Of a DNA stretch of 64,000 nucleotides, positions 11,970 through 45,168 are shown piece after piece. Positions within the stretch are counted from its first letter, which is position 1; every line of letters begins with the position of its first letter. Source of the stretch: Escherichia coli (lineage in GTDB: Bacteria; Pseudomonadota; Gammaproteobacteria; Enterobacterales; Enterobacteriaceae); assembly GCF_044324785.1 (NCBI RefSeq), contig NZ_CP172127.1; one strand, written 5' to 3'. Made by a program: the position numbers and the translations under genes. The notes beneath the pieces were generated by a model. That model was not told the origin of the DNA. It saw only the letters and a list, made by a program, of their open reading frames with translations, and searched no databases.

Positions 11970-11971
11970 GG

Positions 11972-13005: not shown

Positions 13006-13047
13006 CAGGCGACATCAGCAACAAGGGGAAAAACGCGATGTCGCCTG
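13006..13047. promoter_or_regulatory. perfect 11-bp inverted repeat (caggcgacatc ... gatgtcgcctg) in the divergent control region between the pil operon and the helicase operon
   Basis: Seen directly in sequence; candidate operator or stem-loop. Confidence 0.35.
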
Positions 13048-13494
13048 AAAGGTACTGGTGCAGCGGTGCGTTGTACGGACGCAGGTCCGCACAACCGGAA
13101 ATACACGGGATGATTCGGTCAGTGTATTTTCGTGTTGTGCGCCTGTACTGATACGGCAGGGTGTGATGAGTGTTACCTGTGGCTGCAGGCGCGGCACGTC
13201 ACTCATAACGTAGCATTCTGTTTCCTCCTCAGCCCGGCTTCAGGGCGTTGCCGCAATACCCGATTGTTAAAGAGCCTTACCGGCATGGTGTCCGGTGTCA
13301 CCGCGCGGATAACGATACGGCGGTGTCTGAAGGGATGATGCTGCGGCGCTCTGCACATGGCGACGATTAATTCTTTTTGTGTTTCTGAAAATTTATTGCC
13401 GGGAAATTTCTGGTGTGACAGGGTGAATTAATTCTGGTCAGCGACGCTCCTGAGAAGGCAGAGTGCGCTGACATTTCGTGAACGGAGGAATGCC

Positions 13495-15003
13495 ATGTCC
13501 CTGAATCCCACCGATGAACAGTCAGCCATCATTCACTGGCAGGGGGAAAAACTGGTGGTGAATGCCTTTGCCGGTACAGGCAAAACCAGCACACTGGTGC
13601 AGTTCGCCGCAGCCTGCCCTGAGAGCCGGATGCTGTATCTGGCCTATAACCGCGCGATTCGTGATGAGGCGGAGCGCCGGTTTCCCTTTAATGTGGAGTG
13701 CAAAACCTCCCATCAGCTGGCGTATTCGCGGTTCGGAAAGCATTTCCGGCATCGTCTGGTGCCGGGGCTGTCAGTGACGGATGTAGCGAGAAAACTGAAC
13801 ACCCGCTACTGGACGCTTGCCCGTGTTGCCATGACCGCGCTGAATCAGTTCATCTGTTCGGCGGACGTGGCGCCCGGAATGCAGCATATGCCGCCTCCCG
13901 ACGAGATGAAGGGCATGTCGCCACAGGATGCGCTGCGTGCCGTGCAGATCCTCTGGCATGAAATGAGCAATCCGGATGGCAATTTTCCGGTCACTCACGA
14001 CACCTATCTGAAGCTCTATCAGCTTTCCTCACCGGATCTGTCACGCAGGTGGGATACGATCCTTTTTGATGAGGCCCAGGATGCGAATCCGGTGACGTCC
14101 GCACTGGTGCTGGGGCAGCGGTGCAGGGTGGTACTGGTTGGCGACCGTTACCAGCAGATTTATCGTTTTCGTGGTGCCAGCAATGCACTGTCGCATCCGG
14201 CACTGAACGGGGCGGACCGTCTCTGGCTGACGCAAAGTTTTCGTTTTGGTCCTGCCGTGGCCGGGGTGGCCAGCCAGTTACTGAAGCGTGCCGGCGAGAG
14301 CCGTGAGGTGACCGGCAGGGGCGGGGATGATGAAGTGCTGACGGCAGGTGAAATGCGTGCGCGCGTGAAGGCAGGGAAGATGACCGGTCACAGGGCGATA
14401 CTGAGCCGGACGGTGGCCGGTGTGATTGGCACCGCACTGATGGCGGCAATGCGTGGCAGGAAGGTTTACTGGGTGGGGGGCATTGAAGGCTACAGAACGG
14501 AGGCACTGGAAGATCTTTACTGGTTTCAGATGGATATGCCGGAGCGGATGCACAGTGACAGACTGCGGAAGGACTACCGGGGTTTTGACGAGTACCGTCA
14601 TATTGCGAAGGTGACGAAGGATGTGGAAATGAATCAGTCCATTCGTCTGCTGGAGCTGTGCTTTCCGCTGCCGAAGAAACTCGAACTTCTCAGAAAGCAC
14701 ACCGTCACGAATGAACAGGAGGCGGATATCACGGTCTCAACGGCACACCGCAGTAAGGGACTGGAGTGGTCACTGGTGGTACTCGATGATGATTTTCAGG
14801 ATATCACCGACCCGCTGATAAGCGAGCAGGAGCGGCGGGATGAAACCAATCTGCTCTATGTGGCGGTCACCCGGGCGCGCAGAACGCTGGTTCTCAATGA
14901 ACTCATGCAGCAGCTGACGGAAGCTGCCGGCGATGGTGGTGCACCCGGAAACGCGCCGGTGCAGGGGAAGGAAGACGATGGTGTGGAGGGAGAGGATGTT
15001 TAA
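13495..15003 (+). CDS. UvrD/Rep-like superfamily-1 DNA helicase, short form (502 aa)
   Basis: SF1 motifs in order: Walker A (AFAGTGKTS), DEAQD (motif II), VGDRYQQIYRFRGA (III), SFRFG, TAHRSKGLEW (V), LYVAVTRAR (VI); GGAGG RBS. Confidence 0.8.
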   Translation: MSLNPTDEQSAIIHWQGEKLVVNAFAGTGKTSTLVQFAAACPESRMLYLAYNRAIRDEAERRFPFNVECKTSHQLAYSRFGKHFRHRLVPGLSVTDVARKLNTRYWTLARVAMTALNQFICSADVAPGMQHMPPPDEMKGMSPQDALRAVQILWHEMSNPDGNFPVTHDTYLKLYQLSSPDLSRRWDTILFDEAQDANPVTSALVLGQRCRVVLVGDRYQQIYRFRGASNALSHPALNGADRLWLTQSFRFGPAVAGVASQLLKRAGESREVTGRGGDDEVLTAGEMRARVKAGKMTGHRAILSRTVAGVIGTALMAAMRGRKVYWVGGIEGYRTEALEDLYWFQMDMPERMHSDRLRKDYRGFDEYRHIAKVTKDVEMNQSIRLLELCFPLPKKLELLRKHTVTNEQEADITVSTAHRSKGLEWSLVVLDDDFQDITDPLISEQERRDETNLLYVAVTRARRTLVLNELMQQLTEAAGDGGAPGNAPVQGKEDDGVEGEDV

Positions 15004-16525
15004 GCGGTTCAGACGTATGCTGCCCGGCACAAAGGGCACGGAGCCTGGCGTGGTCGCGCCGGTGATACCGGCAGGGTTTTATGCGCCGCTCACGGCAGAG
15101 GCACTGTTATCACCAGAGCACAGGGAGCTGAGGCTCAGGCAGGTCTGGGATAACAATCCGATGCCCCGTGATGTATACGACAGGATGTGCCTTGAACCAC
15201 TCAGCCGGCTGCTGCTGAACACCCAGAACGTCCCGGCAACACGGGAAGGACGGTGGTCCCGTGCCGGTGGATTTGGTGATCTGACGGTACTGTACACCAC
15301 GTATGCCGTTCGTCTGGCAAGAGGGTACATGTTTCCACCGGATGCGACCCCGGAAGACCAGGCGGCTCAGGCCGCAGTCTGGCATGCGGTGATTTTCTGG
15401 TCAGCGCTGTTTTACCACCTGCCCCTGCTGGCGCACCTTGAGGGGGAACTGCTGAGTGGGCGGGGCTGGCAGCCAGGAATTTCTGTGCCTGACGAACCTT
15501 TCCGTTTCCGGTTCAGGAAGACGGCGCCGCAGGGTACGGAAGCGCAACAACTTGCGGCCCTGACTGCCGGCACGCTGTTACCGGACGGCGCAACGGCCTG
15601 GCTTGTGACGGCGCCGGGCGCACTGCAGAATCTGGCCGGGGCGCTCTGGCATCAGCATCCCGGGATGGCGCTGATTCGTGATGTGCTGCAGGAAGCGGCA
15701 AGGCAGACAGAGAGTCCGCTGAATACCTGCGCTGTCACTGCGCCGGTTACTGCGGAGGCTTCAGCAGACATTCGTCCTGCTGACCCGGTGGTGACCGGCA
15801 GCACGGACAGTGTGGTGGCAGTCACTGAGGTGCAGCCGGCAGAGGAGGTGAAGACTGAGAGCGTGCAGACAGAGACTGAAGGTGGTGGTGAGTCCGCCGG
15901 GGCGTCAGAGGTGCCGTCCGCACAGCAGGAACTGACGGTTCAGACAGCGCCAGTGGTGACGGCAGATGATGAAGCGGTCAGTGCTGCTCCTGCGGATCAG
16001 GACACAGCAATGCTGCTGAGTCTTTTTTCAGCAGATGAGTCCGAAACTGCTGAACCTGAAAACAGTATTAAATCGTCAGCCGATCGGGACGGCCAAAGTG
16101 ACGTACCGGCAGTACAGGGAGAACAAACCAGCGTTATTTATCCGGAGGGCGAAGCAGATACGGAAGAGGTGGATTTTATTACTTGGCTGAAATCGGGGTT
16201 GTCATCGGGGATGATTGAAATAAATACACCTTCCGCGAGAGTGCATTGTATTGCGGGGTATGTTTTTTTGTGTGTCCCGGATATTTTTTATCTGTATCAG
16301 AAAATGACGGGAAGCCGTCGTGACCGCAGGAGTGTTCAGGCGTTGTTTGAACGTTCCCGTATTCACAAAATCCGGGAAGGTGAGCGTTTTTTCAGCCTGC
16401 ATCTGTATAGTGTACCTGACAGAACAGGGAGTTATAAAGCTGTAAGCGGATATCTGGTTAAAAGCCGTTATCTGTGTGGTTATAACGCAGTGCCCGGGGA
16501 CAGTGAATACATTGCTTTTCCATAA
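14996..16525 (+). CDS. hypothetical 509-aa protein: N-terminal domain, long acidic low-complexity linker, conserved-looking C-terminal domain
   Basis: ATG overlaps the helicase stop (ATGTTTAA) with GGAGGG RBS; no Walker A and no HD motif found by eye; alternative starts at 14933 or 14978. Confidence 0.6.
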   Translation: MFKRFRRMLPGTKGTEPGVVAPVIPAGFYAPLTAEALLSPEHRELRLRQVWDNNPMPRDVYDRMCLEPLSRLLLNTQNVPATREGRWSRAGGFGDLTVLYTTYAVRLARGYMFPPDATPEDQAAQAAVWHAVIFWSALFYHLPLLAHLEGELLSGRGWQPGISVPDEPFRFRFRKTAPQGTEAQQLAALTAGTLLPDGATAWLVTAPGALQNLAGALWHQHPGMALIRDVLQEAARQTESPLNTCAVTAPVTAEASADIRPADPVVTGSTDSVVAVTEVQPAEEVKTESVQTETEGGGESAGASEVPSAQQELTVQTAPVVTADDEAVSAAPADQDTAMLLSLFSADESETAEPENSIKSSADRDGQSDVPAVQGEQTSVIYPEGEADTEEVDFITWLKSGLSSGMIEINTPSARVHCIAGYVFLCVPDIFYLYQKMTGSRRDRRSVQALFERSRIHKIREGERFFSLHLYSVPDRTGSYKAVSGYLVKSRYLCGYNAVPGDSEYIAFP

Positions 16526-16555
16526 CAGCACCGGGTCATTCATCCGTTCAGGGAG

Positions 16556-17668
16556 ATGTATTCCCCTATGAAGAAAGATGTCGAAAAAATAACGTGGGAG
16601 GAATTACTCTTTGAGTACTTCCTTGAGAAAAATCTTAAACCTGATACTGAACACAGCTACCGCAAAGTTGTCCGTCTGTTTGATAAGTTCCTGGGCGGTG
16701 ATTCCTGGCCCGGCGATGTCACACCGAGAGACATTCAGCGATGGCGACGTCATATGCTTAAAGATCAGGGGCGTTCAGTAAACACCTGGAATAACAGAGT
16801 GTCACATCTCCGACCGCTCCTGGCGCTTGGGATCAAGAAAAAGTGGTTACCACAGACGGAAAATCCGCTTGATGGCACTTCAGTGCCCGGGGCATCAAAA
16901 CAGAAAAAAACGCTCACTGATAAAGAGATGGTCAGGATTTACCGTACAGTTCAGGCTTTTGCTGAAGCTGAGGCCAATAAGATGGTGATCTGTGACAGGC
17001 GGCGCAATGCGATGTACCCTGCATGGTACTGGCTGATCGTGCTGGATACGCTGCGCTTCACGGGGATGCGTTTTAACCAGCTGAAACATATCAGGCTGAA
17101 GGATATTCATGAGGATGAGGCGGTGATTACCCTTCAGCTGGAAGGGAGTAAAACCCGACGTGAATGGCGTGTGCCGATTGTGGAATCGTTACGACTTTCA
17201 CTGAAACATCTTATTGAGTGCGCCCGTGTCAATGGTGCGTCGGATAATGACTATCTCTTTGATGTCTGCCTGTACAGCGAGCATTACAGTCCCGGGAAAT
17301 ACCAGTACTGTGCCAAAAGAGCGCATCAGTCGGTCAAATCTTTTTTCCGCAGACTGAGCCGTGAATGTGGTTTTTTTGTCTCGTCACACAGATTCAGACA
17401 CACACTGGCAACAAAGCTGATGGCGGCACCGGAGCGTAATCTGCACATGGTCAAATCCATTCTGGGGCACAGGAGTGTTGCCACCACCATGGAGTATATT
17501 GATTTTTCGGTGGAAGTTGCTGCTGAGGCACTGGAGGCTGAACTCGGTTTATCCACGGATGAGGCGACAAAAAGACGGATTAAAGAGGCGAAAAAACGCC
17601 GTGAGGCCAGTACCGGGAAAAAGGAAAAACAGGAAAGTTCTGGAGGGGAACTTTCTGACAAGGAATAA
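16556..17668 (+). CDS. int: tyrosine-type site-specific integrase (370 aa)
   Basis: Catalytic-domain motifs (RFRHTLATKLM; LGHRSVATTMEYIDF); about 200 bp from the tRNA-Phe 3' end. Confidence 0.85.
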   Translation: MYSPMKKDVEKITWEELLFEYFLEKNLKPDTEHSYRKVVRLFDKFLGGDSWPGDVTPRDIQRWRRHMLKDQGRSVNTWNNRVSHLRPLLALGIKKKWLPQTENPLDGTSVPGASKQKKTLTDKEMVRIYRTVQAFAEAEANKMVICDRRRNAMYPAWYWLIVLDTLRFTGMRFNQLKHIRLKDIHEDEAVITLQLEGSKTRREWRVPIVESLRLSLKHLIECARVNGASDNDYLFDVCLYSEHYSPGKYQYCAKRAHQSVKSFFRRLSRECGFFVSSHRFRHTLATKLMAAPERNLHMVKSILGHRSVATTMEYIDFSVEVAAEALEAELGLSTDEATKRRIKEAKKRREASTGKKEKQESSGGELSDKE

Positions 17669-17872
17669 ACATGCTTGACATCGGACCAGAATGGTGTAAG
17701 CATTTTTGCGTATGCGAGAGCGTGACACCTGTTACCAGCAGGTGCCACGCTTGAGGATACGATACTGAAACCACAGTGTAACCAGACTTACACGGAGATT
17801 TCGTTATGACCGGATCCTGTATTAGACGCCCGTTAAGGATCTCATCCCTTAACCAGCGTACTTTGATGCGTT

Positions 17873-17948
17873 TGGTGCCCGGAGGCGGAATCGAACCACC
17901 GACACGGGGATTTTCAATCCCCTGCTCTACCGACTGAGCTATCCGGGC
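17873..17948 (-). tRNA. pheV: tRNA-Phe (anticodon GAA), island integration site
   Basis: Reverse complement reads GCCCGGATAGCTCAGTCGGTAGAGCAGGGGATTGAAAATCCCCGTGTCGGTGGTTCGATTCCGCCTCCGGGCACCA; position downstream of yqgA matches pheV. Confidence 0.9.
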
Positions 17949-18053
17949 AACGGGGCGCATTAAACCTGATTCGCCTCGTCTCGTCAATCAAATTTCTTCA
18001 ATTTAGTGCAGACTGCACAATCTATCATCACTTTGCCGCTATTGCACACATTG

Positions 18054-24248: not shown

Positions 24249-25301
24249 CTAAACCGGCGCGCCAGTGCGTAACTGCTGTAACAAACGCTCCACGGGAGCC
24301 GCCAGGCCAACTGACGGCGGTTGCGCTAAGTTATACCAGAGCGCATTGTCTTCATCCATGCAGCCGATGAATGACGACACGGGAAGCCACATAGGCACAA
24401 TATCTAAGTGGAAATGGCTGAAGGTATGCCGAAACGCTGTCAGCTGTGTCAGGTTATCGGCAGCAATCTGCCGTTGCGCCAGCCACTGCCGCAAACTTTC
24501 TTCATCGGCAAACTGCGGGAAACAGTATAAACCGCCCCACAATCCGCTCGGCGGACGCTGCGCCAGCAATACTTCATCTTCGTGCTGTAACAGCAAAAAG
24601 TAGCCGGTGCGCTCTGGCAGCGTCTGTTTCGGTTTTTTGCCCGGATAAAGCGACCAGCTATTGTTGGCGGCGGCAATACATCCGTTTTGTAGCGGACAGA
24701 GCGAGCATTTCGGCTTAGAGCGCGTACAAATCATCGCGCCCAAATCCATCATCGCCTGATTAAACCGCTCCACGCCGACCGCGGGCGTCACCTGCTCGCT
24801 CAAACTCCACAGTTTATTCTCGACCTCTTTTTTCCCAGGCCAGCCGCTTACAGCATAGCAGCGCGCCAGCACCCGTTTGACGTTACCGTCGAGAATCGGA
24901 AAGTGCTTACCTAGAGAAAGCGAGAGAATCGCGCCTGCGGTGGAACGCCCGACGCCCGGTAACGCCGCGACTTCTTCAAAGGTTTCCGGGAATTTACCGC
25001 CGTGTAAGGTCGCCACTTGTTGTGCCGCTTTATGCAGATTGCGCGCGCGGGCGTAATAGCCAAGCCCGGTCCACAAGTGGAGAACTTCGTCGAGCGGCGC
25101 ATTGGCGAGATCGGTCACCGTTGGGAAGCGCGCCATAAAGCGTTCAAAATAGGGGATAACGGTCGCAACCTGAGTTTGTTGCAACATCACTTCTGAGAGC
25201 CATACTTTGTAGGGCGTCTTGTCAATTTGCCAGGGCAGCGTTTTCCGCCCGTATTTATCGTACCAGTCCAGAACCTGGGCTGAAAATTGCGACGCTTGCA
25301 T
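24249..25301 (-). CDS. mutY: adenine DNA glycosylase MutY (350 aa)
   Basis: Start at internal ATG ([25 protein letters not shown]...). Confidence 0.9.
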
Positions 25302-25461
25302 GGTCACCGAATTCACTGTTGTTGGGGGCAAGATTGCAGCACAGCGACGGCAGGGTGTAAACCGGAACTTTCCGCAGCCACGGCCTTATCATGCTTGCAT
25401 CCGGCAACTAACTTTGGATAATGCCCGTTTTCAGAACACTTTCACAAGCGACTAAATCTTT

Positions 25462-26181
25462 ATGAAAAACGACGTCATCTCACCGGAATTTGATGAAAAC
25501 GGCCGCCCGCTGCGCCGTATCCGTAGTTTTGTGCGCCGCCAGGGGCGACTGACCAAAGGCCAGGAACATGCGCTGGAAAACTACTGGCCGGTGATGGGCG
25601 TTGAGTTCAGCGAAGATATGCTGGATTTCCCTGCGCTTTTTGGCCGTGAAGCGCCGGTGACGCTTGAGATTGGTTTTGGCATGGGCGCGTCGCTGGTGGC
25701 AATGGCTAAAGATCGCCCCGAGCAGGACTTCCTCGGCATTGAAGTGCATTCACCGGGCGTTGGTGCGTGCCTGTCTTCTGCGCATGAAGAGGGCTTAAGC
25801 AACCTGCGCGTGATGTGTCACGATGCGGTTGAAGTGCTGCATAAAATGATTCCTGACAATTCATTGCGCATGGTGCAGCTCTTTTTCCCTGACCCGTGGC
25901 ACAAAGCGCGCCATAATAAACGCCGTATCGTTCAGGTGCCGTTTGCCGAGCTGGTAAAAAGCAAACTGCAGCTGGGGGGCATATTCCATATGGCGACCGA
26001 CTGGGAACCTTATGCGGAACATATGCTTGAAGTGATGTCTTCTATTGACGGTTATAAAAACCTGTCAGAGAGCAATGATTACGTACCGCGTCCGGCATCA
26101 CGTCCGGTGACGAAATTTGAACAACGTGGTCATCGTCTTGGTCACGGAGTATGGGACTTAATGTTCGAGAGGGTGAAATAA
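25462..26181 (+). CDS. trmB: tRNA (guanine46-N7)-methyltransferase (239 aa)
   Basis: Recognisable translation; SAM-MTase. Confidence 0.9.
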
Positions 26182-26507
26182 TGGCAAAGAACCGTAGCCG
26201 TCGTCTGCGTAAAAAAATGCACATCGACGAATTCCAGGAATTAGGATTTTCGGTGGCATGGCGATTCCCGGAAGGTACATCGGAAGAACAGATTGATAAA
26301 ACCGTTGATGACTTTATTAACGAGGTTATCGAACCGAACAAACTGGCCTTTGACGGCAGCGGTTATCTGGCCTGGGAAGGTCTGATCTGCATGCAGGAAA
26401 TCGGCAAATGCACCGAAGAACATCAGGCGATTGTGCGTAAGTGGCTGGAAGAACGCAAACTGGAAGAGGTACGCACCAGCGAACTTTTCGACGTTTGGTG
26501 GGACTAA
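26181..26507 (+). CDS. yggL: DUF469 protein YggL (108 aa)
   Basis: Start ([18 protein letters not shown]...) overlaps the trmB stop (TAATG). Confidence 0.85.
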   Translation: MAKNRSRRLRKKMHIDEFQELGFSVAWRFPEGTSEEQIDKTVDDFINEVIEPNKLAFDGSGYLAWEGLICMQEIGKCTEEHQAIVRKWLEERKLEEVRTSELFDVWWD

Positions 26508-26537
26508 GAAAGCATACGGGCGATGACAAATGCAAAA

Positions 26538-26620
26538 CTGCCTGATGTGCTACGCTTATCAGGCCTATAAAGATGCACGATCGAGTAGGCTGGATAAGGC
26601 GTTTACGCCGCATCCGGCAT
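26538..26620. repeat. REP (repetitive extragenic palindromic) elements
   Basis: gcctgatg...cttatcaggc and ggataaggcgtttacgccgcatccggca motifs. Confidence 0.7.
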
Positions 26621-26690
26621 GGAAAACGCGCACTTTGTTATCAATCTGGGGCCAGCAAATGCTGGCCTGATTTGTTCTTGAGGGAAGACT

Positions 26691-27410
26691 ATGATGCGCA
26701 AAATGCTGCTGGCGGCAGCACTTTCAGTGACGGCAATGACCGCTCACGCCGACTACCAGTGCAGCGTCACGCCGCGTGACGATGTGATTGTCAGCCCGCA
26801 AACCGTGCAGGTGAAGGGCGAAAACGGCAATCTGGTGATCACGCCAGACGGCAACGTGATGTATAACGGTAAGCAATATTCCCTGAATGCCGCCCAGCGC
26901 GAGCAGGCGAAGGATTATCAGGCTGAACTACGTAGCACCCTGCCGTGGATTGATGAAGGCGCGAAAAGCCGCGTCGAGAAAGCCCGTATTGCGCTGGATA
27001 AAATTATCGTTCAGGAGATGGGCGAAAGCAGCAAAATGCGCAGCCGTCTGACCAAACTTGATGCGCAGCTGAAAGAGCAGATGAACCGCATTATCGAAAC
27101 GCGCAGCGATGGCCTGACGTTTCACTATAAAGCCATTGATCAGGTTCGTGCCGAAGGCCAGCAATTAGTGAATCAGGCAATGGGCGGAATTTTACAGGAC
27201 AGCATTAATGAAATGGGCGCGAAAGCGGTGCTGAAAAGCGGCGGTAACCCATTACAGAACGTGCTGGGAAGCCTGGGCGGTCTGCAATCCTCAATCCAAA
27301 CAGAGTGGAAAAAGCAGGAAAAAGATTTCCAGCAGTTTGGCAAAGATGTTTGTAGCCGCGTTGTGACTCTGGAAGATAGCCGCAAAGCCCTGGTCGGGAA
27401 TTTAAAATAA
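26691..27410 (+). CDS. yggN: DUF2884 periplasmic protein YggN (239 aa)
   Basis: Signal peptide; synteny. Confidence 0.85.
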   Translation: MMRKMLLAAALSVTAMTAHADYQCSVTPRDDVIVSPQTVQVKGENGNLVITPDGNVMYNGKQYSLNAAQREQAKDYQAELRSTLPWIDEGAKSRVEKARIALDKIIVQEMGESSKMRSRLTKLDAQLKEQMNRIIETRSDGLTFHYKAIDQVRAEGQQLVNQAMGGILQDSINEMGAKAVLKSGGNPLQNVLGSLGGLQSSIQTEWKKQEKDFQQFGKDVCSRVVTLEDSRKALVGNLK

Positions 27411-27585
27411 TCCTCTATTTTAAGACGGCATAATACTTTTTTATGCCGTTTAATTCTTCGTTTTGTTACCTGCCTCTAACTTTGTAGATCTCCAAAATAT
27501 ATTCACGTTGTAAATTGTTTAACGTCAAATTTCCCATACAAAGCTAAGGGATAATGCGTAGCGTTCACGTAACTGGAGGAATGAA

Positions 27586-28632
27586 ATGGAGTTTTTCAAA
27601 AAGACGGCACTTGCCGCACTGGTTATGGGTTTTAGTGGTGCAGCATTGGCATTACCCAATATCACCATTTTAGCAACCGGCGGGACCATTGCCGGTGGTG
27701 GTGACTCCGCAACCAAATCTAACTACACAGCGGGTAAAGTTGGCGTAGAAAATCTGGTTAATGCGGTGCCGCAACTGAAGGACATTGCGAACGTTAAAGG
27801 CGAGCAGGTAGTGAATATTGGCTCCCAGGACATGAACGATGATGTCTGGCTGACACTGGCGAAAAAAATTAACACCGACTGCGATAAAACTGACGGCTTC
27901 GTCATTACCCACGGTACCGACACGATGGAAGAAACCGCTTACTTCCTCGACCTGACGGTGAAATGCGACAAACCGGTGGTGATGGTCGGTGCAATGCGCC
28001 CGTCCACGTCTATGAGCGCAGACGGTCCATTCAACCTGTATAACGCGGTAGTGACCGCAGCTGATAAAGCCTCCGCTAATCGTGGCGTACTGGTAGTGAT
28101 GAACGACACCGTGCTTGATGGCCGTGATGTCACCAAAACCAACACCACCGACGTAGCGACCTTCAAGTCTGTTAACTACGGTCCTCTGGGTTACATTCAC
28201 AACGGTAAGATTGACTACCAACGTACCCCGGTACGTAAGCACACCAGCGACACGCCGTTCGATGTCTCTAAGCTGAATGAACTGCCGAAAGTCGGCATTG
28301 TTTATAACTACGCTAACGCATCCGATCTTCCGGCTAAAGCACTGGTAGATGCGGGCTATGATGGCATCGTTAGCGCTGGCGTGGGTAACGGCAACCTGTA
28401 TAAAACCGTATTTGACACCCTTGCAACCGCTGCGAAAAACGGCACTGCAGTAGTGCGTTCTTCCCGCGTACCGACGGGCGCTACCACTCAGGATGCCGAA
28501 GTGGATGATGCGAAATACGGCTTCGTCGCCTCTGGCACGTTGAACCCGCAAAAAGCGCGCGTTCTGCTGCAACTGGCTCTGACGCAAACTAAAGATCCGC
28601 AGCAGATCCAGCAGATCTTCAATCAGTACTAA
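27586..28632 (+). CDS. ansB: periplasmic L-asparaginase II (348 aa)
   Basis: Signal peptide plus asparaginase motifs (ILATGGTIAG; HGTDTMEETAYFL). Confidence 0.95.
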   Translation: MEFFKKTALAALVMGFSGAALALPNITILATGGTIAGGGDSATKSNYTAGKVGVENLVNAVPQLKDIANVKGEQVVNIGSQDMNDDVWLTLAKKINTDCDKTDGFVITHGTDTMEETAYFLDLTVKCDKPVVMVGAMRPSTSMSADGPFNLYNAVVTAADKASANRGVLVVMNDTVLDGRDVTKTNTTDVATFKSVNYGPLGYIHNGKIDYQRTPVRKHTSDTPFDVSKLNELPKVGIVYNYANASDLPAKALVDAGYDGIVSAGVGNGNLYKTVFDTLATAAKNGTAVVRSSRVPTGATTQDAEVDDAKYGFVASGTLNPQKARVLLQLALTQTKDPQQIQQIFNQY

Positions 28633-28639
28633 TCACTTC

Positions 28640-28662
28640 GCCCCGGTATCGTGCCGGGGCTT
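28640..28662 (+). terminator. putative ansB terminator hairpin (gccccggtatcgtgccggggc)
   Basis: GC-rich hairpin directly after the stop; weak T-tract. Confidence 0.4.
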
Positions 28663-28748
28663 ATTCACTTCAGACTCACGTCCATTGCCAATTTTTATTA
28701 CCCTAATGATAATCACCGGAATAAATTATTCCGCGCGAGGGTTTTCGG

Positions 28749-29756
28749 GTGAAAAAGCAATGGATTGTTGGTACGGCGCTGTTTATGTTGATGACTGGTA
28801 ATGTCCGGGCAGATGGTGAACCGCCAACTGAAAATATCTTAAAAGATCAATTCAAAAAGCAGTATCACGGCATTCTCAAGCTTGATGTCATCACCTTAAA
28901 AAATCTTGATGCTAAGGGTAATCAGGCCACCTGGTCAGCGGAAGGCGATGTCTCTTCCAGTGACGATCTCTATACCTGGGTCGGTCAGTTGGCAGATTAC
29001 GAGCTGCTCGAACAGACCTGGACGAAAGATAAACCGGTGAAATTCTCGGCGATGTTAACCAGTAAAGGAACGCCCGCGTCTGGCTGGTCGGTGAACTTTT
29101 ACTCTTTTCAGGCGGCAGCCAGCGATCGTGGGCGGGTGGTTGACGATATCAAAACCAATAATAAATATCTGATCGTGAATAGCGAAGATTTCAATTATCG
29201 CTTTAGTCAGCTTGAGTCTGCGTTGAATAACCAGAATAACTCGATTCCTGCACTGAAAAAGGATGTAAAAGCGCTTGATAAGCAAATGGTGGCGGCGCAG
29301 AAAGCAGCGGATGCATATTGGGGAAAAGATGCAAACGGTAAGCAAATGACCCGCGAAGACGCCTTTAAAAAAATTCACCAACAGCGTGATGATTTTAATA
29401 AACAGAACGATAGTGAGGCGTTCGCGGTTAAATATGACAAAGAGGTTTATCAACCGGCGATTGCGGCATGTCATAAACAGAGTGAAGAGTGTTATGAAGT
29501 GCCAATTCAGCAGAAACGAGATTTTGATATCAATGAACAACGGCGACAGACTTTTCTGCAATCACAAAAACTTAGCCGTAAATTGCAGGATGACTGGATA
29601 ACGCTCGAAAAAGGGCAATATCCGTTAACGATGAAAGTTTCAGAAATAAACAGTAAAAAAGTCACGATTTTGATGAAAATTGACGATATCAACCAGGCTA
29701 ATGAACGCTGGAAAAAAGATACCGAACAATTGCGGCGCAATGGGGTGATTAAGTAA
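28749..29756 (+). CDS. yggM: DUF1202 secreted protein YggM (335 aa)
   Basis: Signal peptide; synteny between ansB and hemW. Confidence 0.8.
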   Translation: MKKQWIVGTALFMLMTGNVRADGEPPTENILKDQFKKQYHGILKLDVITLKNLDAKGNQATWSAEGDVSSSDDLYTWVGQLADYELLEQTWTKDKPVKFSAMLTSKGTPASGWSVNFYSFQAAASDRGRVVDDIKTNNKYLIVNSEDFNYRFSQLESALNNQNNSIPALKKDVKALDKQMVAAQKAADAYWGKDANGKQMTREDAFKKIHQQRDDFNKQNDSEAFAVKYDKEVYQPAIAACHKQSEECYEVPIQQKRDFDINEQRRQTFLQSQKLSRKLQDDWITLEKGQYPLTMKVSEINSKKVTILMKIDDINQANERWKKDTEQLRRNGVIK

Positions 29757-29778
29757 TTTTTGCGATGACGCAAGAGTT

Positions 29779-29813
29779 GTAGCCGGATGTTGCGTACACG
29801 CCGCATCCGGCAA
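29779..29813. repeat. REP element
   Basis: gtagccggatg...cgccgcatccggca palindrome. Confidence 0.65.
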
Positions 29814-29820
29814 TACAAAT

Positions 29821-30957
29821 TTACTCAGCCAGAAAAAGCTCCAGCAGCGAATTTAAAAACAACTTCCCATGTTCCGTTATCTGCCAGTAATCCGCACATT
29901 CTGTGAGATAACCCTGAGCGATAGCCTCGTCTAACTGTGGGCGAATAACCTCTTCTGAAAGGCCAGTATACTGGCTAAACTCCACGCGCGGCGCGGCTTC
30001 CAGCAAACGGAAGCGATTCATAAAGAACTCAAATGGTTTATCTGCGGCTTCGACATCACGCTGGCTTTCCAGATACCGCCCCTGCATAAAACCACGTGGA
30101 TGACGCGTTTTGGTGGTACGCAGAATGCGCCCATCCGGGAAGGTCACTTTGCCATGCGCGCCGCAGCCAATACCGATGTAGTCACCAAAGCGCCAGTAGT
30201 TGAGATTGTGCTGGCACTGATAACCGGGTTTGGCGTAAGCGGAAGTTTCATATTGCTGATAACCCGCTGCGGTTAATAACTGATGCCCCTGTTCGAAAAT
30301 GTCCCACAGCGCGTCATCGTCCGGCAGTACAGGAGGGCGCGAGCCAAACAGCGTATTGGGTTCGATGGTCAGTTGATACCAGGAAAGATGCGGCGGATTC
30401 AGTTCAATGGCCTGGCGTAGATCGCCTAGCGCCTCTTCCAGTGATTGATCCGGTAGCCCATGCATCAAATCGAGGTTAAAGCTACGTAACCCTAAACCGC
30501 TCGCCAGATTTGCCGCTCGTTTCGCTTCTTGCGGGCCATGAATGCGCCCAAGTCGTTTCAGCTTTTCTTCGCTAAAACTCTGTACGCCAATGGAGATGCG
30601 GTTCACACCAGCACGCTGATAATCAACAAAGCGATCGGCTTCAACCGTACCAGGGTTCGCTTCCATCGTAATTTCTGCATCCGCTGCCAGCGGCAAACGC
30701 GCACGTACGCCGTTCAGCAGCGTTTGCATCGCCGGGCCGGAAAGCAGGCTCGGCGTACCACCGCCAATAAAGATTGTCTTTACTTCACGGCCCTGAGCGT
30801 AAGCCACATCGTTGTCCAGATCGTTAAGCAGATGCTGAACATAATCGTCGTGCGGCACTTCTCCTTTCAACGCGTGAGAGTTGAAATCGCAGTACGGGCA
30901 TTTCTGCACGCACCACGGGATGTGAATGTAGAGACTCAGCGGCGGTAATTTAACCAT
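29821..30957 (-). CDS. hemW: radical-SAM heme chaperone HemW (378 aa)
   Basis: CxxxCxxC radical-SAM motif ([10 protein letters not shown]). Confidence 0.9.
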
Positions 30958-31543
30958 TACGTAAAGCGTCCAGCAGCAGTTTCAACGCCTGACCACGGTG
31001 GGAAATGGCGCTCTTTTCTTCGCGGGTCAGTTCGGCAGCGGTTTTCCCTTCGGAAGGTACGAAGAAGATTGGATCATAACCAAAGCCACCAGTGCCCGCT
31101 GGTTCACGAGTAATCACGCCTGGCCAGCTACCGTGGCATACCAGCGGAGTGGGATCTTCCGCGTGACGCAGATATACCAGCACGCAGTGGAAACGCGCCT
31201 GACGTTGGTCGTCCGGTACGTCTTTCATTGTTTCCAGCAGTTTTTGCAGATTCTTTTGATCGGTCGCGTCTTCACCGGAATAACGCGCGGAGTAAATACC
31301 CGGCGCGCCACCCAGCGCATCTACCGCCAGACCGGAGTCGTCGGCAATTGCCGGTAAACCGGTCACTTTTGCCGCATGGCGCGCTTTCAGAATCGCGTTT
31401 TCGATAAAGGTCAGGCCGGTTTCTTCAGCGGAATCTACGCCGAGGTCTGTTTGGGCAACGATATCAAGACCGAAGTCGCTAAGCAGCGACGCCAGCTCAC
31501 GCACTTTACCGGCATTGCCGGTTGCGAGGACAACTTTTTGCAT
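30950..31543 (-). CDS. rdgB: dITP/XTP pyrophosphatase (197 aa)
   Basis: Ham1-family translation ([16 protein letters not shown]...); 8-bp overlap with hemW. Confidence 0.9.
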
Positions 31544-31550
31544 AGGATAC

Positions 31551-31841
31551 CTAATTAATTAACGCCGCGATTTCTGGCGGGATTTGTTGCGGATTAATGA
31601 TTTTAATTTGTTTGTGGCGGCCAAGTTCGCCTTTTTCAATCACCACCTGGCTTTTGGCAACCCGGAATAGCTTACCGAGAAACTTCACCAGATGGCTGTT
31701 GGCCTGGCCGTCAACCGGCGGCGCGGTAATGGCGACTTTTACCTCGTCGCCATGTAAACCGACAATAGAATCACGGCTGGCTTTCGGCTGAATATAGAGC
31801 CGTAAAACCAGACCGTCATCATTAACTGTTACGGCACTCAT
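31551..31841 (-). CDS. yggU: DUF167 protein YggU (96 aa)
   Basis: Start at internal ATG ([20 protein letters not shown]...). Confidence 0.8.
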
Positions 31842-32404
31842 AACGCCATCCACAGCCCCGGCAGCAGCATATTTCCGGTCGCCTGCAAGACTTCTGCGAC
31901 ACCCATATTGATGACATACAGCAGCAGAACGAGGATCATCGGCGAGAAATCAATCCCACCCATTGCCGGTAGCAAGCGGCGAATCGGGCGCAGCAGCGGA
32001 TCGGCCAGCTGAATCAGCACGTATTCAATCGGGCTACGACCCTGGCTTACCCAGCTCATAATCGCCATCACCAGCAGGACCCAGAAAATCAGCAGGCCGA
32101 TGGTTTTCAGCAGAATTAATAAACCGGCAATCCAAATGATTGGCAGGAAGGTCACCACTTTAAACAGCACGATGGCTTTAATGAAACTGAGAATATAGGC
32201 AACCAGCAGCGAGGCGCTATCAATGGGTCCCATTGCCGGAATAACGCGGCGCAGTGGCCCGATAATCGGCTGCGTTACCTTCACTACAAACTGTGAGAAG
32301 GGGTTGTAAAAATCACAATGAGCCCACTGCATCCAGATGCGTAATAACAGCACCATGGTATACAGCTCAATGACCGTTGAAAGCAGGAAAGTCAACGTAT
32401 TCAT
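31838..32404 (-). CDS. yggT: YggT-family inner-membrane protein (188 aa)
   Basis: Polytopic membrane protein; synteny. Confidence 0.85.
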
Positions 32405-32421
32405 GGCGTTCCTTTAATTCC

Positions 32422-33126
32422 TTATTTTTTAGAGTAATCACGCGCACCAAAAATTGCAGTGCCGATACGAACCATCGTGCTACCTGCCGCAATGGCGGCT
32501 TCCATATCGTCCGACATTCCCAGAGAGAGCGTGTCGATATGCGGGTAGCGCGTTTTCAGTCCGGCAAATGCTACAGCCATTTGGCGTGCAACTTCAAACT
32601 GCCTTACATATTCTGACTCAGGCGCAGGGATTGCCATCAGCCCGCGCAGACGTAAACGCGGTAGTTCAGCGACCGCAGCTGCCAGCTCGTCCAGTTCAGC
32701 CAGTTGAATCCCGGACTTACTGTTTTCATCACTAATATTAATTTGAATCAGTACGTTAAGAGGGGGAAGTTCTGCCGGGCGCTGGTCGTTCAGACGGGTA
32801 GCGATGCGCAAACGGTCGATGGTATGACACCAGTCGAAATGCTCTGCCACCAGGCGGCTTTTATTAGACTGCAACGGGCCAATAAAATGCCATTCTAATC
32901 CTGTTACGCCCAGTTCCTGAAAGTGGCGAATTTTATCTACCCCTTCCTGAACGTAGTTTTCACCAAATTGACGCTGCCCGGCATCAATGGCTTCTGCGAT
33001 GGCGCTCGCAGGTTTTGTTTTACTGACTGCAAGCAGCGTAATTTCTTCTGGAGAACGGCCGCAACGCGTTGCAGCCGCTGAGATTTTGTCCCGGACCTGT
33101 GCCAGGTTATGCGCAATATCGTTCAT
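32422..33126 (-). CDS. yggS: PLP homeostasis protein YggS (234 aa)
   Basis: Alanine-racemase-N-like fold-III PLP protein (...LAVSKTKP...). Confidence 0.9.
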   Translation of the reverse strand: MNDIAHNLAQVRDKISAAATRCGRSPEEITLLAVSKTKPASAIAEAIDAGQRQFGENYVQEGVDKIRHFQELGVTGLEWHFIGPLQSNKSRLVAEHFDWCHTIDRLRIATRLNDQRPAELPPLNVLIQINISDENSKSGIQLAELDELAAAVAELPRLRLRGLMAIPAPESEYVRQFEVARQMAVAFAGLKTRYPHIDTLSLGMSDDMEAAIAAGSTMVRIGTAIFGARDYSKK

Positions 33127-33143
33127 TTTCCGAGGATCTTAGT

Positions 33144-34124
33144 ATGAATATGGAAGAAATTGTGGCCCTTAGTGTAAAGCATAACGTCTCGGATCTACAC
33201 CTGTGCAGCGCCTGGCCCGCACGATGGCGTATTCGCGGGAGAATGGAAGCTGCGCCGTTTGACGCGCCGGACGTCGAAGAGCTACTGCGGGAGTGGCTGG
33301 ATGACGATCAGCGGGCAATATTGCTGGAGAATGGTCAGCTGGATTTTGCTGTGTCGCTGGCGGAAAACCAGCGATTGCGCGGCAGTGCGTTCGCACAACG
33401 GCAAGGTATTTCTCTGGCGTTACGGCTGTTACCTTCGCACTGCCCGCAGCTCGAACAGCTTGGCGCACCACCGGTATTGCCGGAATTACTCAAGAGCGAG
33501 AATGGCCTGATTCTGGTGACGGGGGCGACGGGGAGCGGCAAATCTACCACGCTGGCGGCGATGGTTGGCTATCTCAATCAACATGCCGATGCGCATATTC
33601 TGACGCTGGAAGATCCTGTGGAATATCTCTATACCAGTCAGCGATGTTTGATTCAGCAGCGGGAGATTGGTTTGCACTGTATGACTTTCGCATCGGGATT
33701 GCGGGCTGCATTGCGGGAAGATCCTGATGTGATTTTGCTCGGAGAGCTGCGTGATAGCGAGACAATCCGTCTGGCGCTGACGGCGGCAGAAACCGGGCAT
33801 CTGGTGCTGGCGACATTACACACGCGCGGCGCAGCGCAGGCAGTTGAGCGACTGGTGGATTCATTTCCTGCGCAGGAAAAAGATCCCGTGCGTAATCAAC
33901 TGGCAGGTAGTTTACGGGCAGTGTTGTCACAAAAACTGGAAGTGGATAAACAGGAAGGACGCGTGGCGCTGTTTGAATTACTGATTAACACACCCGCGGT
34001 GGGGAATTTGATTCGTGAAGGGAAAACCCACCAGTTACCGCATGTTATTCAAACCGGGCAGCAGGTGGGGATGATAACGTTTCAGCAGAGTTATCAGCAG
34101 CGGGTGAAAGAAGGGCGCTTGTGA
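33144..34124 (+). CDS. yggR: PilT-like type IV pilus retraction-ATPase homologue YggR (326 aa)
   Basis: Start at internal ATG (MNMEEIVALSVKH...); Walker A (GATGSGKSTT). This is a core gene, not part of the island. Confidence 0.85.
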   Translation: MNMEEIVALSVKHNVSDLHLCSAWPARWRIRGRMEAAPFDAPDVEELLREWLDDDQRAILLENGQLDFAVSLAENQRLRGSAFAQRQGISLALRLLPSHCPQLEQLGAPPVLPELLKSENGLILVTGATGSGKSTTLAAMVGYLNQHADAHILTLEDPVEYLYTSQRCLIQQREIGLHCMTFASGLRAALREDPDVILLGELRDSETIRLALTAAETGHLVLATLHTRGAAQAVERLVDSFPAQEKDPVRNQLAGSLRAVLSQKLEVDKQEGRVALFELLINTPAVGNLIREGKTHQLPHVIQTGQQVGMITFQQSYQQRVKEGRL

Positions 34125-34155
34125 CGTTGCTGTGTCTGATACGAATTGTAAATAT

Positions 34156-34250
34156 GCCCGATGCGCAAGCTTATCGGGCCTACAAGGGAAGCGTAACTTT
34201 GAATTCGCACTCACTGTAGGTTGGATAAGGCGTTTACGCCGCATCCAACA
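34156..34250. repeat. REP elements (two units)
   Basis: gcccgatgcgcaagcttatcgggcc and ggataaggcgtttacgccgcatcc motifs. Confidence 0.7.
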
Positions 34251-34297
34251 TGAAACAATGAGCACATTGTCAGAAATCTGTGCGCTAGTAAATCGCC

Positions 34298-34714
34298 TTA
34301 ATATCCCTGCTCGAAATAGCTTTCGAGAATAATAACCGCAGAGGCAGAGTCGACTTTGCCTTTGTTGAGCGCCCGATAGCCGCCCTGTTCAAACAGACCG
34401 GAACGTGCCTCCACGGTGCTAAGTCGCTCGTCATGGAGCTTTACTTCAACACCGAAACGACCATGAATACGGTTGGCAAATTTACGCGCTCTGGCGGTTA
34501 ACGGCTGTTCGGTGCCGTCCATATTCAGCGGCAAACCGACGATGATTTCGTCCGGCTGCCACTCTTTCAGTAAACGCTCGATAATGTTCCAGTCCGGCGT
34601 ACCGTCCTGCGCTTTAATTGCAGGCAAAGGGCGAGCGGTGCCGGTAATGCGTTGGCCGACCGCTACGCCAATGCTTTTGGTGCCGAAGTCGAAGGCGAGT
34701 AAGGTTCCACTCAT
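34298..34714 (-). CDS. ruvX: Holliday-junction-resolvase-like pre-16S rRNA nuclease RuvX/YqgF (138 aa)
   Basis: Start ([20 protein letters not shown]...) overlaps the yqgE stop. Confidence 0.9.
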
Positions 34715-35277
34715 CAGGCGTGTCCTGCCACACCAGGCATGGTGAGAATATCCACACCAATCAGTTTTGCCGCCTCGCGCCAGCGGTCGGCAATCGGCGT
34801 TTTGAACAGAATATTCAGATCTGCCGGGGCCGTTAGCCACGCGTTATCGAGAATTTCTTGTTCCAGTTGACCTTTCTCCCAGGAGGCATAACCCAGAGCC
34901 ACCAATACGTCAGACGGTTGTTTATCGGTGCCGAGCGTTTCCAGCACATCGCGGGAAGTGGTCATCACTGTGTTGTCTGAAATGCGAATGCTGGAAGCAA
35001 AATTGGAGGGCGGAGTATGCAAAATAAACCCGCGATCTTCAGCCAGCGGACCGCCGAGCATAACCGGTTTATCCAGACGGATTGATTCATCACGCGGCTC
35101 CGGCGTGATCTTCAGCTTTTCCAGAATCCCTTCAATTTTGAGATTTTCCAGCGGCTTGTTGACGATGATCCCCATTGCACCATTGGTATTATGTTCGCAA
35201 ATGTAGACCACGGAACGACGGAAAATCGGATCCTGGAGAGCAGGCATGGCAATAAGAAAGTGATGCTGTAAATTCAT
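34714..35277 (-). CDS. yqgE: UPF0301 protein YqgE (187 aa)
   Basis: Start at internal ATG ([17 protein letters not shown]...). Confidence 0.85.
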
Positions 35278-35385
35278 TGTCAGAGGTTCTGTTTCCTGGT
35301 TCAAAAAAGCAACAGCGCCCAGTATGCGTGGAAAGAAGGGCGCTGTCACTCAGAGTCTCAACGAGATCCTTCTCGCTAAGGTGGG

Positions 35386-36336
35386 TTACTGCTGCTGTAA
35401 ACGTGCTTCGATGGCATCCATTAACATTCCGGTGATCGACACCGGAAACTCTGCTTCAATCTCACGAATACAGGTTGGGCTGGTGACGTTAATTTCAGTC
35501 AGACGGTCGCCGATGATATCCAGACCAACAAAAATCAGCCCTTTTTCTTTCAGCGTCGGCCCAATCTGACGGGCGATTTTCCAGTCACTTTCCGTCAGCG
35601 GACGAGGTTCACCGCGACCACCGGCAGCCAGATTGCCACGGGTTTCGCCCCCCTGCGGAATACGCGCCAGGCAATACGGCACCGGCTCGCCATCCACTAC
35701 CAGCACGCGTTTGTCGCCATCTTTAATGGCTGGCAGGTAATTTTGCGCCATGCAGTAGCGAGTGCCATGCTCAGTCAGGGTTTCGGCAATCACGCCGAGG
35801 TTTGGATCACCTTCTTTCACGCGGAAAATCGACGCGCCGCCCATACCGTCCAGCGGCTTAAGAATGATGTCGCTGTGTTTTTCCCAGAAAGCTTTTAGCT
35901 GCGCTTTATTGCGTGTGACCAGCGTTTCTGGTGTTAAGTCAGAGAACCAGGCAGTGAACAGTTTTTCGTTACAATCGCGCAGGCTCTGCGGCTTGTTAAC
36001 GATCAGCGTCCCTTTATCTTCGGCACGTTCCAGAATATAGGTCGCGTAGATAAACTCGGTATCAAACGGCGGGTCTTTACGCATCAGGATCACATCGAGA
36101 TCGGCCAGCGGCAGATCCTGCTCACCCGTGAACTCGTACCATTTATCGTAGTTCTGTTCGACGCTCAAAGTACGGGTACGAGCGCGAGCCTCACCATTGA
36201 TCAAATAGAGATCGGCCATCTCCATATAGTGAAGTTCGTAACCACGACGCTGTGCTTCCAGCAACATAGCGAAACTGGAATCTTTCTTGATGTTGATGTT
36301 TGCGATGGGGTCCATCACGATGCCGAGCTTGATCAT
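35386..36336 (-). CDS. gshB: glutathione synthetase (316 aa)
   Basis: ATP-grasp translation (MIKLGIVMDPIANINIKKDSSFAMLLEAQRRG...). Confidence 0.95.
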   Translation of the reverse strand: MIKLGIVMDPIANINIKKDSSFAMLLEAQRRGYELHYMEMADLYLINGEARARTRTLSVEQNYDKWYEFTGEQDLPLADLDVILMRKDPPFDTEFIYATYILERAEDKGTLIVNKPQSLRDCNEKLFTAWFSDLTPETLVTRNKAQLKAFWEKHSDIILKPLDGMGGASIFRVKEGDPNLGVIAETLTEHGTRYCMAQNYLPAIKDGDKRVLVVDGEPVPYCLARIPQGGETRGNLAAGGRGEPRPLTESDWKIARQIGPTLKEKGLIFVGLDIIGDRLTEINVTSPTCIREIEAEFPVSITGMLMDAIEARLQQQ

Positions 36337-44436: not shown

Positions 44437-45168
44437 ATGAAAAAATGGAAAGTACGTAGCGCGTTGATAGCATTAGTCGTGCTGCTGACCGGTTGTTCCA
44501 GTAATGCGCAGTATAATAGCAGTACATCGGGCAATGTCGGCACCGCCTGGGGTGGGGATGTGCACTCATCGGTTCAGGGCGTATCTGCTGAGCGAGCCTG
44601 GCGCGATCCGGCAGAGATGATCGTTATTAGTTATTCGACTACTGTTCCTTCGGGCTACGACCGCGTTTATAGCATTCGTATTAACGAACTGGAATATGCT
44701 ATTCGCGATGGTAATTTTAATTCTCTACCTATTACGCGGGTTTATGATTCATCCAATAATGAACCACGCTATATTGTCCATGCCAGAATCGGAATGAATT
44801 ATCAATTATATATCCGTAATTACAGTCGTAACACCAACTACGAGATCGTTGCTACGGTTGATGGCCTGGATGTGCTGAACGGCAAGCAAGGTTCGCTGAA
44901 TAACAATGGCTATATTGTGAATGCCGGAGATTCGTTAGCGATTAAAGGATTCCGCAAAGATAAACATACCGAAGCGGCTTTTCAGTTCGCCAACGTTGCT
45001 GATTCCTACGCAGCCAATTCGGCGCAAGGCGATGTGCGTAATACCGGGGTAATCGGCTTTGCCGCCTTTGAATTACAAGGCCCGGCGCAAAACGCGATGC
45101 CACCGTGCTCTGGACAAGCCTTTCCGGCAGATAACAATGGCTATGCACCGCCACCGTGCCGGAAATAG
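44437..45168 (+). CDS. predicted lipoprotein of unknown function (243 aa) inserted between speA and speB
   Basis: Lipobox (LLTGCSS); AT-rich leader; own terminator downstream; function unknown. Confidence 0.65.
   Translation: MKKWKVRSALIALVVLLTGCSSNAQYNSSTSGNVGTAWGGDVHSSVQGVSAERAWRDPAEMIVISYSTTVPSGYDRVYSIRINELEYAIRDGNFNSLPITRVYDSSNNEPRYIVHARIGMNYQLYIRNYSRNTNYEIVATVDGLDVLNGKQGSLNNNGYIVNAGDSLAIKGFRKDKHTEAAFQFANVADSYAANSAQGDVRNTGVIGFAAFELQGPAQNAMPPCSGQAFPADNNGYAPPPCRK

Follow-up and report, generated by a model that had tools for sequence, protein, structure and literature searches.

Four ordinary stop/start overlaps in conserved Escherichia coli housekeeping operons and their probable part in translational coupling

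The stretch of Escherichia coli DNA considered here (the window, 64,000 nucleotides) includes the core-chromosome operons trmB-yggL, yggS-yggT-yggU-rdgB-hemW and gshB-yqgE-ruvX, in which the end of one gene overlaps the beginning of the next at four places (Table 1). All four pairs fit the -1/-4/-8 overlap class, with both members on the same strand and a junction of the form TRATG, NTGA or NTGNNTRR, and the same is so in K-12. The only Rfam family in the window is tRNA-Phe.

Table 1. Genes, junctions and Shine-Dalgarno-like motifs of the four overlapping pairs
Feature	Coordinates	Strand	Remarks
trmB, tRNA m7G46 methyltransferase	25462..26181	+	upstream member of pair 1
yggL, YggL 50S-binding protein, 108 aa	26181..26507	+	downstream member of pair 1
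TAATG junction (-1), GAAATAATGGCA	26179..26183	+	base 26181 common to trmB TAA and yggL ATG
GAGAGGG, Shine-Dalgarno-like	26167..26173	+	in trmB 3' end, 8 nt 5' of yggL ATG
rdgB, dITP/XTP pyrophosphatase	30950..31543	-	upstream member of pair 2
hemW, radical-SAM heme chaperone, 378 aa	29821..30957	-	downstream member of pair 2
ATGGTTAA junction (-8)	30950..30957	-	hemW ATG 5 nt 5' of rdgB TAA
yggT, membrane protein	31838..32404	-	upstream member of pair 3
yggU, DUF167, 96 aa	31551..31841	-	downstream member of pair 3
ATGA junction (-4)	31838..31841	-	common to yggT stop and yggU start
yqgE, AlgH/DUF179, 187 aa	34714..35277	-	upstream member of pair 4
ruvX/yqgF, RNase H-like nuclease, 138 aa	34298..34714	-	downstream member of pair 4
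TGATGA, overlap 1 nt	34711..34716	-	yqgE TGA 34716-34714, ruvX ATG 34714-34712, second in-frame TGA 34713-34711
AGGA, Shine-Dalgarno-like	34723..34726	-	in yqgE, 8 nt 5' of ruvX ATG; position inferred from sequence

The TAATG of trmB/yggL, where one nucleotide is shared, and the 8-bp overlap of rdgB/hemW are as the initial annotation described them; trmB itself matches its RefSeq CDS in NZ_CP158426.1 with 100% identity, and K-12 b2960 has the same length and junction. That annotation also gave ATGA overlaps for a pair it named yggU/yggT, where the four shared nucleotides are present but the order is the reverse, yggT being upstream, and for yqgE/ruvX, where there is indeed an overlap, though of 1 nt and not 4. 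The yqgE frame ends GCC TGA TGA and the ruvX ATG takes its A from the first TGA, giving TGATG (-1); the letters ATGA appear there for the sole reason that a second in-frame TGA follows, and the TGATGA is identical in K-12. A further likeness had been drawn to pairs in the island, and it extends to pilU/pilV (-4, GTGA) and to the UvrD-helicase and its partner TraI (-8, ATGTTTAA) but not to pilQ/pilR, which reads CAC TGA C ATG and so has a 1-nt spacer with no overlap. A stop/start overlap leaves no space for a terminator and a promoter.

Is there anything unusual in such a set? Spacings of -4, -1 and -8 are the three commonest in E. coli and likewise over a set of 1,695 species (PMC10666635; review PMC12548453), and these four pairs are tabulated, at -1/-8/-4/-1, in the supplement of a 2023 paper; the overlaps are ordinary, being already known and representing a common, well-documented bacterial arrangement. 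While 707 of 2,987 E. coli pairs (24%) are at -8..+6 nt (PMC10666635), the corresponding counts for co-directional pairs are 9 of 50 in the window and 4 of 11 in the interval 25462-35277, and neither the window (p = 0.41) nor the interval (p = 0.30) is enriched for overlaps when compared with E. coli overall. Under a model of uniform starts from -20 to +200 nt, the 8 of 50 window pairs at exactly -1/-4/-8 have P = 4e-7. With this spacing yggL, hemW, yggU and ruvX join the approximately one quarter of E. coli co-directional pairs whose geometry is permissive for coupling.

What might the junctions do? These are four ordinary overlaps in conserved housekeeping operons, and we consider it likely that each pair is served by one mRNA and that translation of the downstream member is at least partly coupled to that of the upstream one. 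A ribosome terminating at the upstream stop would sit on the downstream start codon and might reinitiate there (termination-reinitiation); by a second route, the upstream ribosome would unwind the local mRNA and a new 30S could bind a Shine-Dalgarno (SD) sequence embedded in the upstream coding sequence. Classical examples of translational coupling are trpE/trpD and trpB/trpA of the trp operon, consecutive cistrons with short stop/start overlaps, a feature common to them and to the four pairs here. The TeRe pairs hyfHI, astDB, ydbH/ynbE as well as menDH (Huber et al. 2019, PMC6728339) are likewise co-directional operon genes that overlap, the upstream coding sequence containing an SD-like motif, and the ATGA geometry of the pairs tested in that work recurs in yggT/yggU, whereas the other three pairs here are at -1 or -8 and not -4; the -8 spacing is reported to reinitiate less efficiently (PMC10666635). 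Where coupling is by RNA unfolding, as in atpHA and phage MS2 coat/lysis (PMC12548453), structured starts are involved, and those of ruvX, yggU and yggL are likewise predicted to be structured; here, however, no specific conserved hairpin was identified at the downstream start regions, and their opening costs are within the coding-sequence-internal background. Experiments on the four pairs were not found in the literature searched (yggT/yggU/rdgB, yqgE/yqgF and yggL/trmB). No terminator-like site lies between the members of any of the four pairs, and a consensus promoter scan, with 8 sites against 9.9 in shuffled sequence, gives no evidence of internal promoters, the site scored inside trmB included.

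Among Enterobacterales loci, the cross-genus set of which was collected by a single plain DNA pattern scan, the geometry is well kept: TAATG in 94 of the 101 species genomes where trmB adjoins yggL, -8 at 34 of 39 rdgB/hemW loci across genera, NTGA at 24 of 25 yggT/yggU loci (N being A in 14, T in 6, G in 4 and never C), and -1, as TGATG or TAATG, at all 11 yqgE/ruvX loci. At these loci the spacers without overlap vary freely, that of yggU/rdgB having 12 different lengths and that of yggS/yggT 7. Across prokaryotes the corresponding COG pairs have median spacings of -4 for RdgB-HemN (n=430), -1 for AlgH-YqgF (IQR -4..+3, n=369 species) and +2 for YggT-YggU (n=253). Conservation of an overlap is nevertheless expected without selection for coupling, because an indel or substitution there damages a start, a stop or the frame. 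The overlaps could be neutral, the outcome of genome compaction and of start/stop turnover, with the downstream genes using their own SD and the junctions having no regulatory role, which we regard as unlikely; purifying selection acting on the two genes would hold an overlap in place once it had formed, so that conservation cannot tell the neutral view from coupling. Of the five native E. coli ATGA pairs tested, four are strictly coupled (PMC6728339), which argues against neutrality, even if bioBF, with an ATGA overlap yet independent initiation, means that ATGA does not guarantee coupling (PMC6728339). Nor would an own SD readily serve hemW, for which the anti-SD duplex, at -3.0 kcal/mol, is near the random background of -2.2, while values of -6.3 and -5.5 kcal/mol apply to the GAGAGGG of yggL and the AGGA of ruvX, and GAGAGG is kept upstream of yggL in the commonest Enterobacterales contexts among those listed.

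Coupling of the four pairs is plausible, and it fits both the published general experiments and the per-gene translation efficiencies. The latter are 1.02 and 1.20 for trmB and yggL, and 0.50 and 0.38 for yggT and yggU (PMC5318159 supplement), a within-pair comparison of two pairs only because the data set lacks hemW and yqgF (PMC5318159), whereas they change approximately 3-fold across the adjacent non-overlapping junctions, from 1.49 for yggS to 0.50 for yggT and from 0.38 for yggU to 1.18 for rdgB (PMC5318159 supplement); such matching within overlapping pairs, and not across neighbouring junctions, is again at odds with neutrality. Abundance of mRNA differs 1.6-1.75-fold within the measured pairs. 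With a ribosome density of 611 against 297 for trmB, i.e., twice as high, and mRNA 1.75-fold higher, yggL cannot rely solely on ribosomes from trmB.

Also counter to the neutral view, the downstream start regions are without the openness typical of independent starts. The leading genes trmB, yggS and gshB have open starts (3.2-5.8 kcal/mol), while the predicted opening cost is 16.2 kcal/mol for ruvX (97th percentile of window genes), 12.8 for yggU and 11.3 for yggL, and the median for overlapped downstream genes is 10.5 versus 7.7 kcal/mol (p=0.03, n=10), a difference confounded by the higher GC of coding sequence; these regions resemble coding-sequence-internal sequence and their cost is not above that background. 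The pairs probably depend on coupling to different degrees: hemW, which has almost no SD, and ruvX and yggU, whose start regions are structured, are likely to depend on it most, and yggL, with its good conserved SD and its ribosome density twice that of trmB, least. If coupling does operate, it would explain matched expression in these housekeeping operons, with no new principle involved.

Could the tight conserved junctions instead mark unrecognised physical or pathway partnerships whose members need matched co-translational synthesis? We think this improbable. The trp pairs encode heteromeric enzyme subunits that need matched stoichiometry, but we know of no physical interaction between the products of any of the four pairs. 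In the 2023 supplement three pairs, trmB/yggL, rdgB/hemW and yqgE/yqgF, are marked 'not' for complex formation and yggT/yggU is unlabelled; in E. coli, complex subunits are encoded by 30% of the pairs at -8..+10 nt as against 7% of those >20 nt apart (PMC10666635). The best candidate for such a partnership could be YqgE(AlgH)-RuvX(YqgF), at -1 in 11/11 genomes and with a median of -1 in 369 species; weaker ones could be YggT-YggU and TrmB-YggL, both products of the latter acting on RNA or the ribosome.

The main use that had been seen for the overlaps was as support for the chosen start codons, and here Pfam boundaries, alternative-start analysis, the YggU peptide, the structures of the 138-aa YqgF and conservation across genera agree with it; comparison with the reference starts does not refute it, because K-12 MG1655 and RefSeq give identical starts and identical overlaps. 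The reference starts of yggL, hemW, yggU and ruvX are thereby confirmed, which is of little value beyond annotation quality. It is hardly credible that any of the overlaps is an artefact of annotation, with the true downstream start elsewhere, though the K-12 protein records of yggL (.4), yqgE (.4) and yggU (.2) have versions above 1, presumably from past sequence or start revisions, longer ORFs are available for yggL (+10 aa), yggU (+4 aa) and ruvX (+42 aa), and in 10 of 25 species yggU would have TTG or GTG as its start at the junction. The upstream alternatives are without SD (-0.7 to -2.2 kcal/mol) and without family homology, and the junction has a valid start codon in 94/101, 34/39, 24/25 and 11/11 genomes. 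For yggL, the in-frame ATG at 26151 lacks an SD (-2.2 vs -6.3 kcal/mol) and in the annotated protein Pfam YggL_50S_bp starts at residue 7; a search by sequence turned up no solved structure for YggL. The annotated ATG of hemW is the first start past an in-frame stop and no other start is open, the next candidate, a GTG at +48 nt, being one that would cut the Radical_SAM domain, whose first residue is 10. The four downstream genes are absent from the start-site data of the INRI-seq supplements; among the matches listed in the TRAINSPOTTER supplement (PMC13245402), YggU is the only one of their products, and its N-terminal peptide is detected at the K-12 ATG corresponding to the annotated one. 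The Pfam RuvX model begins at residue 4 of annotated RuvX, the 42-aa upstream extension is without homology, and the 138-aa protein, a complete and solved domain, is identical to PDB chains 1NMN/1OVQ over 1-138.

The interval 25462-35277, which opens with the trmB start codon and closes at that of yqgE, holds four gene pairs whose stop and start signals share bases, as read directly after RefSeq CDSs were mapped onto the window (table). They are textbook members of the class of short stop/start overlaps, nothing unusual was found at any of the four, and they are already known, being annotated in K-12 and tabulated as these very pairs at -1, -4, -8 and -1 nt (PMC10666635 supplement; negative values are shared bases). 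The overlaps claimed in the initial annotation are real bar two small errors. For yqgE/ruvX (ruvX is also yqgF) a 4-nt ATGA had been misread: the yqgE frame ends GCC TGA TGA, and the first TGA supplies the A of the ruvX ATG; ATGA can be read there only because a second TGA comes next in frame. Among the island pairs cited as parallels, pilU/pilV (4 nt, GTGA) and helicase/TraI (8 nt, ATGTTTAA) do overlap, but pilQ/pilR has a one-base spacer (TGA C ATG).

Features in the window and their coordinates
Feature	Position	Strand	Detail
trmB/yggL overlap	26181	+	1 nt, TAATG
rdgB/hemW overlap	30950-30957	-	8 nt, ATGGTTAA
yggT/yggU overlap	31838-31841	-	4 nt, ATGA
yqgE/ruvX overlap	34714	-	1 nt, TGATG
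yggP/glpX overlap	53778-53781		4 nt, ATGA
fumE/yggC overlap	55271-55274		4 nt, GTGA
pilO/pilP overlap	8398-8408		11 nt, annotated
pilL/pilM overlap	11972-12008		37 nt, annotated
46-aa ORF, yggL to yggN	26530-26670		PGAP hypothetical protein
Terminator-like hairpin	26649-26668		GGGCCAGCAAATGCTGGCC then T-rich tail
Apparent REP-type repeats, hemW/yggM	29757-29820		GCCGGATGCGGCGTGAACGCCTTATCC-like units
Apparent REP-type repeats, ruvX/yggR	34125-34297		GCCGGATGCGGCGTGAACGCCTTATCC-like units
243-aa ORF, speA to speB	44437-45168		lipoprotein signal (LLTGC)
SPFH/Band 7 gene, tkt to cmtB	49345-50253	-	prohibitin family
Island	1-17950		inserted at pheV
tRNA-Phe	17876-17948		adjoins island integrase
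Exchanged blocks downstream of pilV	1313-2062, 2066-2596		differ in GF60

Is such a cluster of overlaps surprising? Spacings of exactly -1, -4 or -8 occur in 8 of the 50 co-directional pairs of the window, P = 4e-7 against naive uniform start placement. However, the top three spacings in E. coli are -4, -1 and -8, and values of -8 to +6 nt account for 707 of its 2,987 unidirectional pairs (24%) (PMC10666635), and over that distribution there is no excess, either in the window (9/50, p = 0.41) or in the interval (4/11, p = 0.30). The overlaps exceed chance by the first yardstick and not by the second. Two further 4-nt core overlaps, yggP/glpX, with a very strong Shine-Dalgarno (SD) pairing of -11 kcal/mol, and fumE/yggC, had not been listed initially.

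The value of the overlaps as support for the chosen start codons was judged correctly. Reference starts do not differ from those chosen, because K-12 MG1655 has equal gene lengths and equal -1, -8, -4 and -1 junctions, with junction sequences identical or different at flanking polymorphisms only. The Pfam family models of the four downstream genes start 3-12 residues past the annotated starts, and they reveal no homology in the possible upstream extensions of yggL (10 aa), yggU (4 aa) and ruvX (42 aa). Nor is there an SD at the alternative upstream starts (-0.7 to -2.2 versus -5.5 to -6.3 kcal/mol at the annotated ones), and for hemW the alternative-start analysis found no other open start codon. 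N-terminomics detected an N-terminal YggU peptide at the annotated K-12 ATG (PMC13245402 supplement), and the solved structures of YqgF/RuvX (1NMN, 1OVQ, 1NU0) show the 138 aa to be a complete domain.

How far are the junctions kept? A degenerate DNA pattern encoding YggL residues 3-12, with the junction outside it, identified 120 loci in species-representative genomes, mostly Enterobacterales and phylogenetically non-independent. Where both genes were adjacent, trmB/yggL was TAATG in 94 of 101 loci, where TrmB identity falls as low as 73%; rdgB/hemW was -8 in 34/39, the remainder mostly -1; yggT/yggU was NTGA in 24/25 (A 14, T 6, G 4, C never); and yqgE/ruvX was -1, as TGATG or TAATG, in all 11. 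TAATG at trmB/yggL is kept in Escherichia, Salmonella, Citrobacter, Klebsiella, Enterobacter, Serratia, Yersinia, Dickeya, Edwardsiella, Hafnia, Photorhabdus and Xenorhabdus; the pattern is broken in Kluyvera, where the gap is 0 nt, and in Shewanella and Ferrimonas, whose short spacers bear a strong SD of their own. In the same loci, as internal control, the non-overlapping yggU/rdgB spacer occurs in 12 lengths and the yggS/yggT spacer in 7. The tandem TGATGA at yqgE, present in several genera, is not itself conserved, since TAATGN replaces it in others. More widely, the COG-pair data of PMC10666635 give medians of -4 for RdgB-HemN (quartiles -8 to +11, 430 species), -1 for AlgH(YqgE)-YqgF (-4 to +3, 369 species) and +2 for YggT-YggU (-4 to +11, 253 species). 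A functional or physical partnership behind the very tight and widely kept AlgH-YqgF junction would be mildly novel, and is a long shot. Because any change strikes start, stop or frame, an overlap is self-locking, and its conservation therefore backs start positions better than selection for coupling. Ten of the 25 Enterobacterales genomes (scan loci L011, L029, L106, L012, L037 and others) would start yggU with TTG or GTG, not ATG, at the conserved yggT/yggU junction, and in several the fourth codon is an in-frame GTG; either the junction tolerates weak start codons or, in those species, yggU begins a few codons further on.

Translational coupling, the initial reading, is reasonable though unproven. 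Current models have the terminating ribosome reinitiate or the upstream ribosome unfold inhibitory structure (review PMC12548453), and strict coupling was seen in 4 of 5 native E. coli ATGA pairs, bioBF being the exception (PMC6728339). At the four pairs the signs of coupling are indirect. SD strengths are -6.3 (yggL), -5.5 (yggU), -5.5 (ruvX) and -3.0 kcal/mol (hemW), versus a window median of -5.8 and -2.2 for random sequence; of the four, hemW is the likeliest to need an upstream ribosome. Opening the region -18 to +12 costs a median 10.5 kcal/mol at overlapped downstream starts against 7.7 at independent ones (Mann-Whitney p = 0.03), with ruvX at 16.2, yggU 12.8, yggL 11.3 and hemW 9.4. 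No difference from the CDS-internal background (12.4) is discernible; the operon-leading trmB, yggS and gshB starts are open (3.2-5.8). Translation efficiencies are close within the two overlapping pairs covered by the data of Burkhardt et al. 2017 (PMC5318159 supplement), from which hemW and yqgF are absent: trmB 1.02/yggL 1.20 and yggT 0.50/yggU 0.38, with approximately 3-fold jumps at the adjacent non-overlapping junctions (yggS 1.49 to yggT 0.50; yggU 0.38 to rdgB 1.18). There, yggL has twice the ribosome density of trmB and 1.75-fold more mRNA, and so trmB ribosomes alone cannot supply it. Partial coupling is probable, we infer, with dependence differing pair by pair.

The window is from an E. 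coli chromosome; 25000-36000 is 100% identical to several complete genomes, e.g., NZ_CP158426.1, and at least 95% in approximately 5,400 others. The island forms its left 17.9 kb, the rest being core genome from yqgA to srsR. Within the core, the 46-aa ORF, with no Pfam match and absent from the K-12 annotation, may be spurious because its 3′ end coincides with the hairpin, a possible terminator of the trmB-yggL transcript. The apparent REP-type repeats in the convergent spacers differ in copy number from K-12, whose hemW/yggM spacer is longer by ~90 bases; between ruvX and yggR there is rearrangement. The 243-aa ORF matched neither a Pfam nor a PADLOC family, and 3,550 of 5,426 E. coli genomes have at least 80% of its segment; K-12 presumably does not carry it. 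The SPFH/Band 7 gene had no PADLOC match.

The island carries a type IVb (R64-like) pil operon, pilL-pilV, an Rci-like shufflon recombinase, a UvrD-like helicase/TraI-domain pair and an integrase. The pilM start may be mis-annotated, as it is a GTG without SD (+1.2 kcal/mol) in a highly structured region (16 kcal/mol). At least 80% of this 24-kb stretch is present in only ~30 of 5,426 E. coli genomes, and NRZ14408, whose core part is identical, carries a wholly different island at the same tRNA. In GF60 two blocks downstream of pilV are exchanged, as shufflon rearrangement of PilV C-terminal exons would give.
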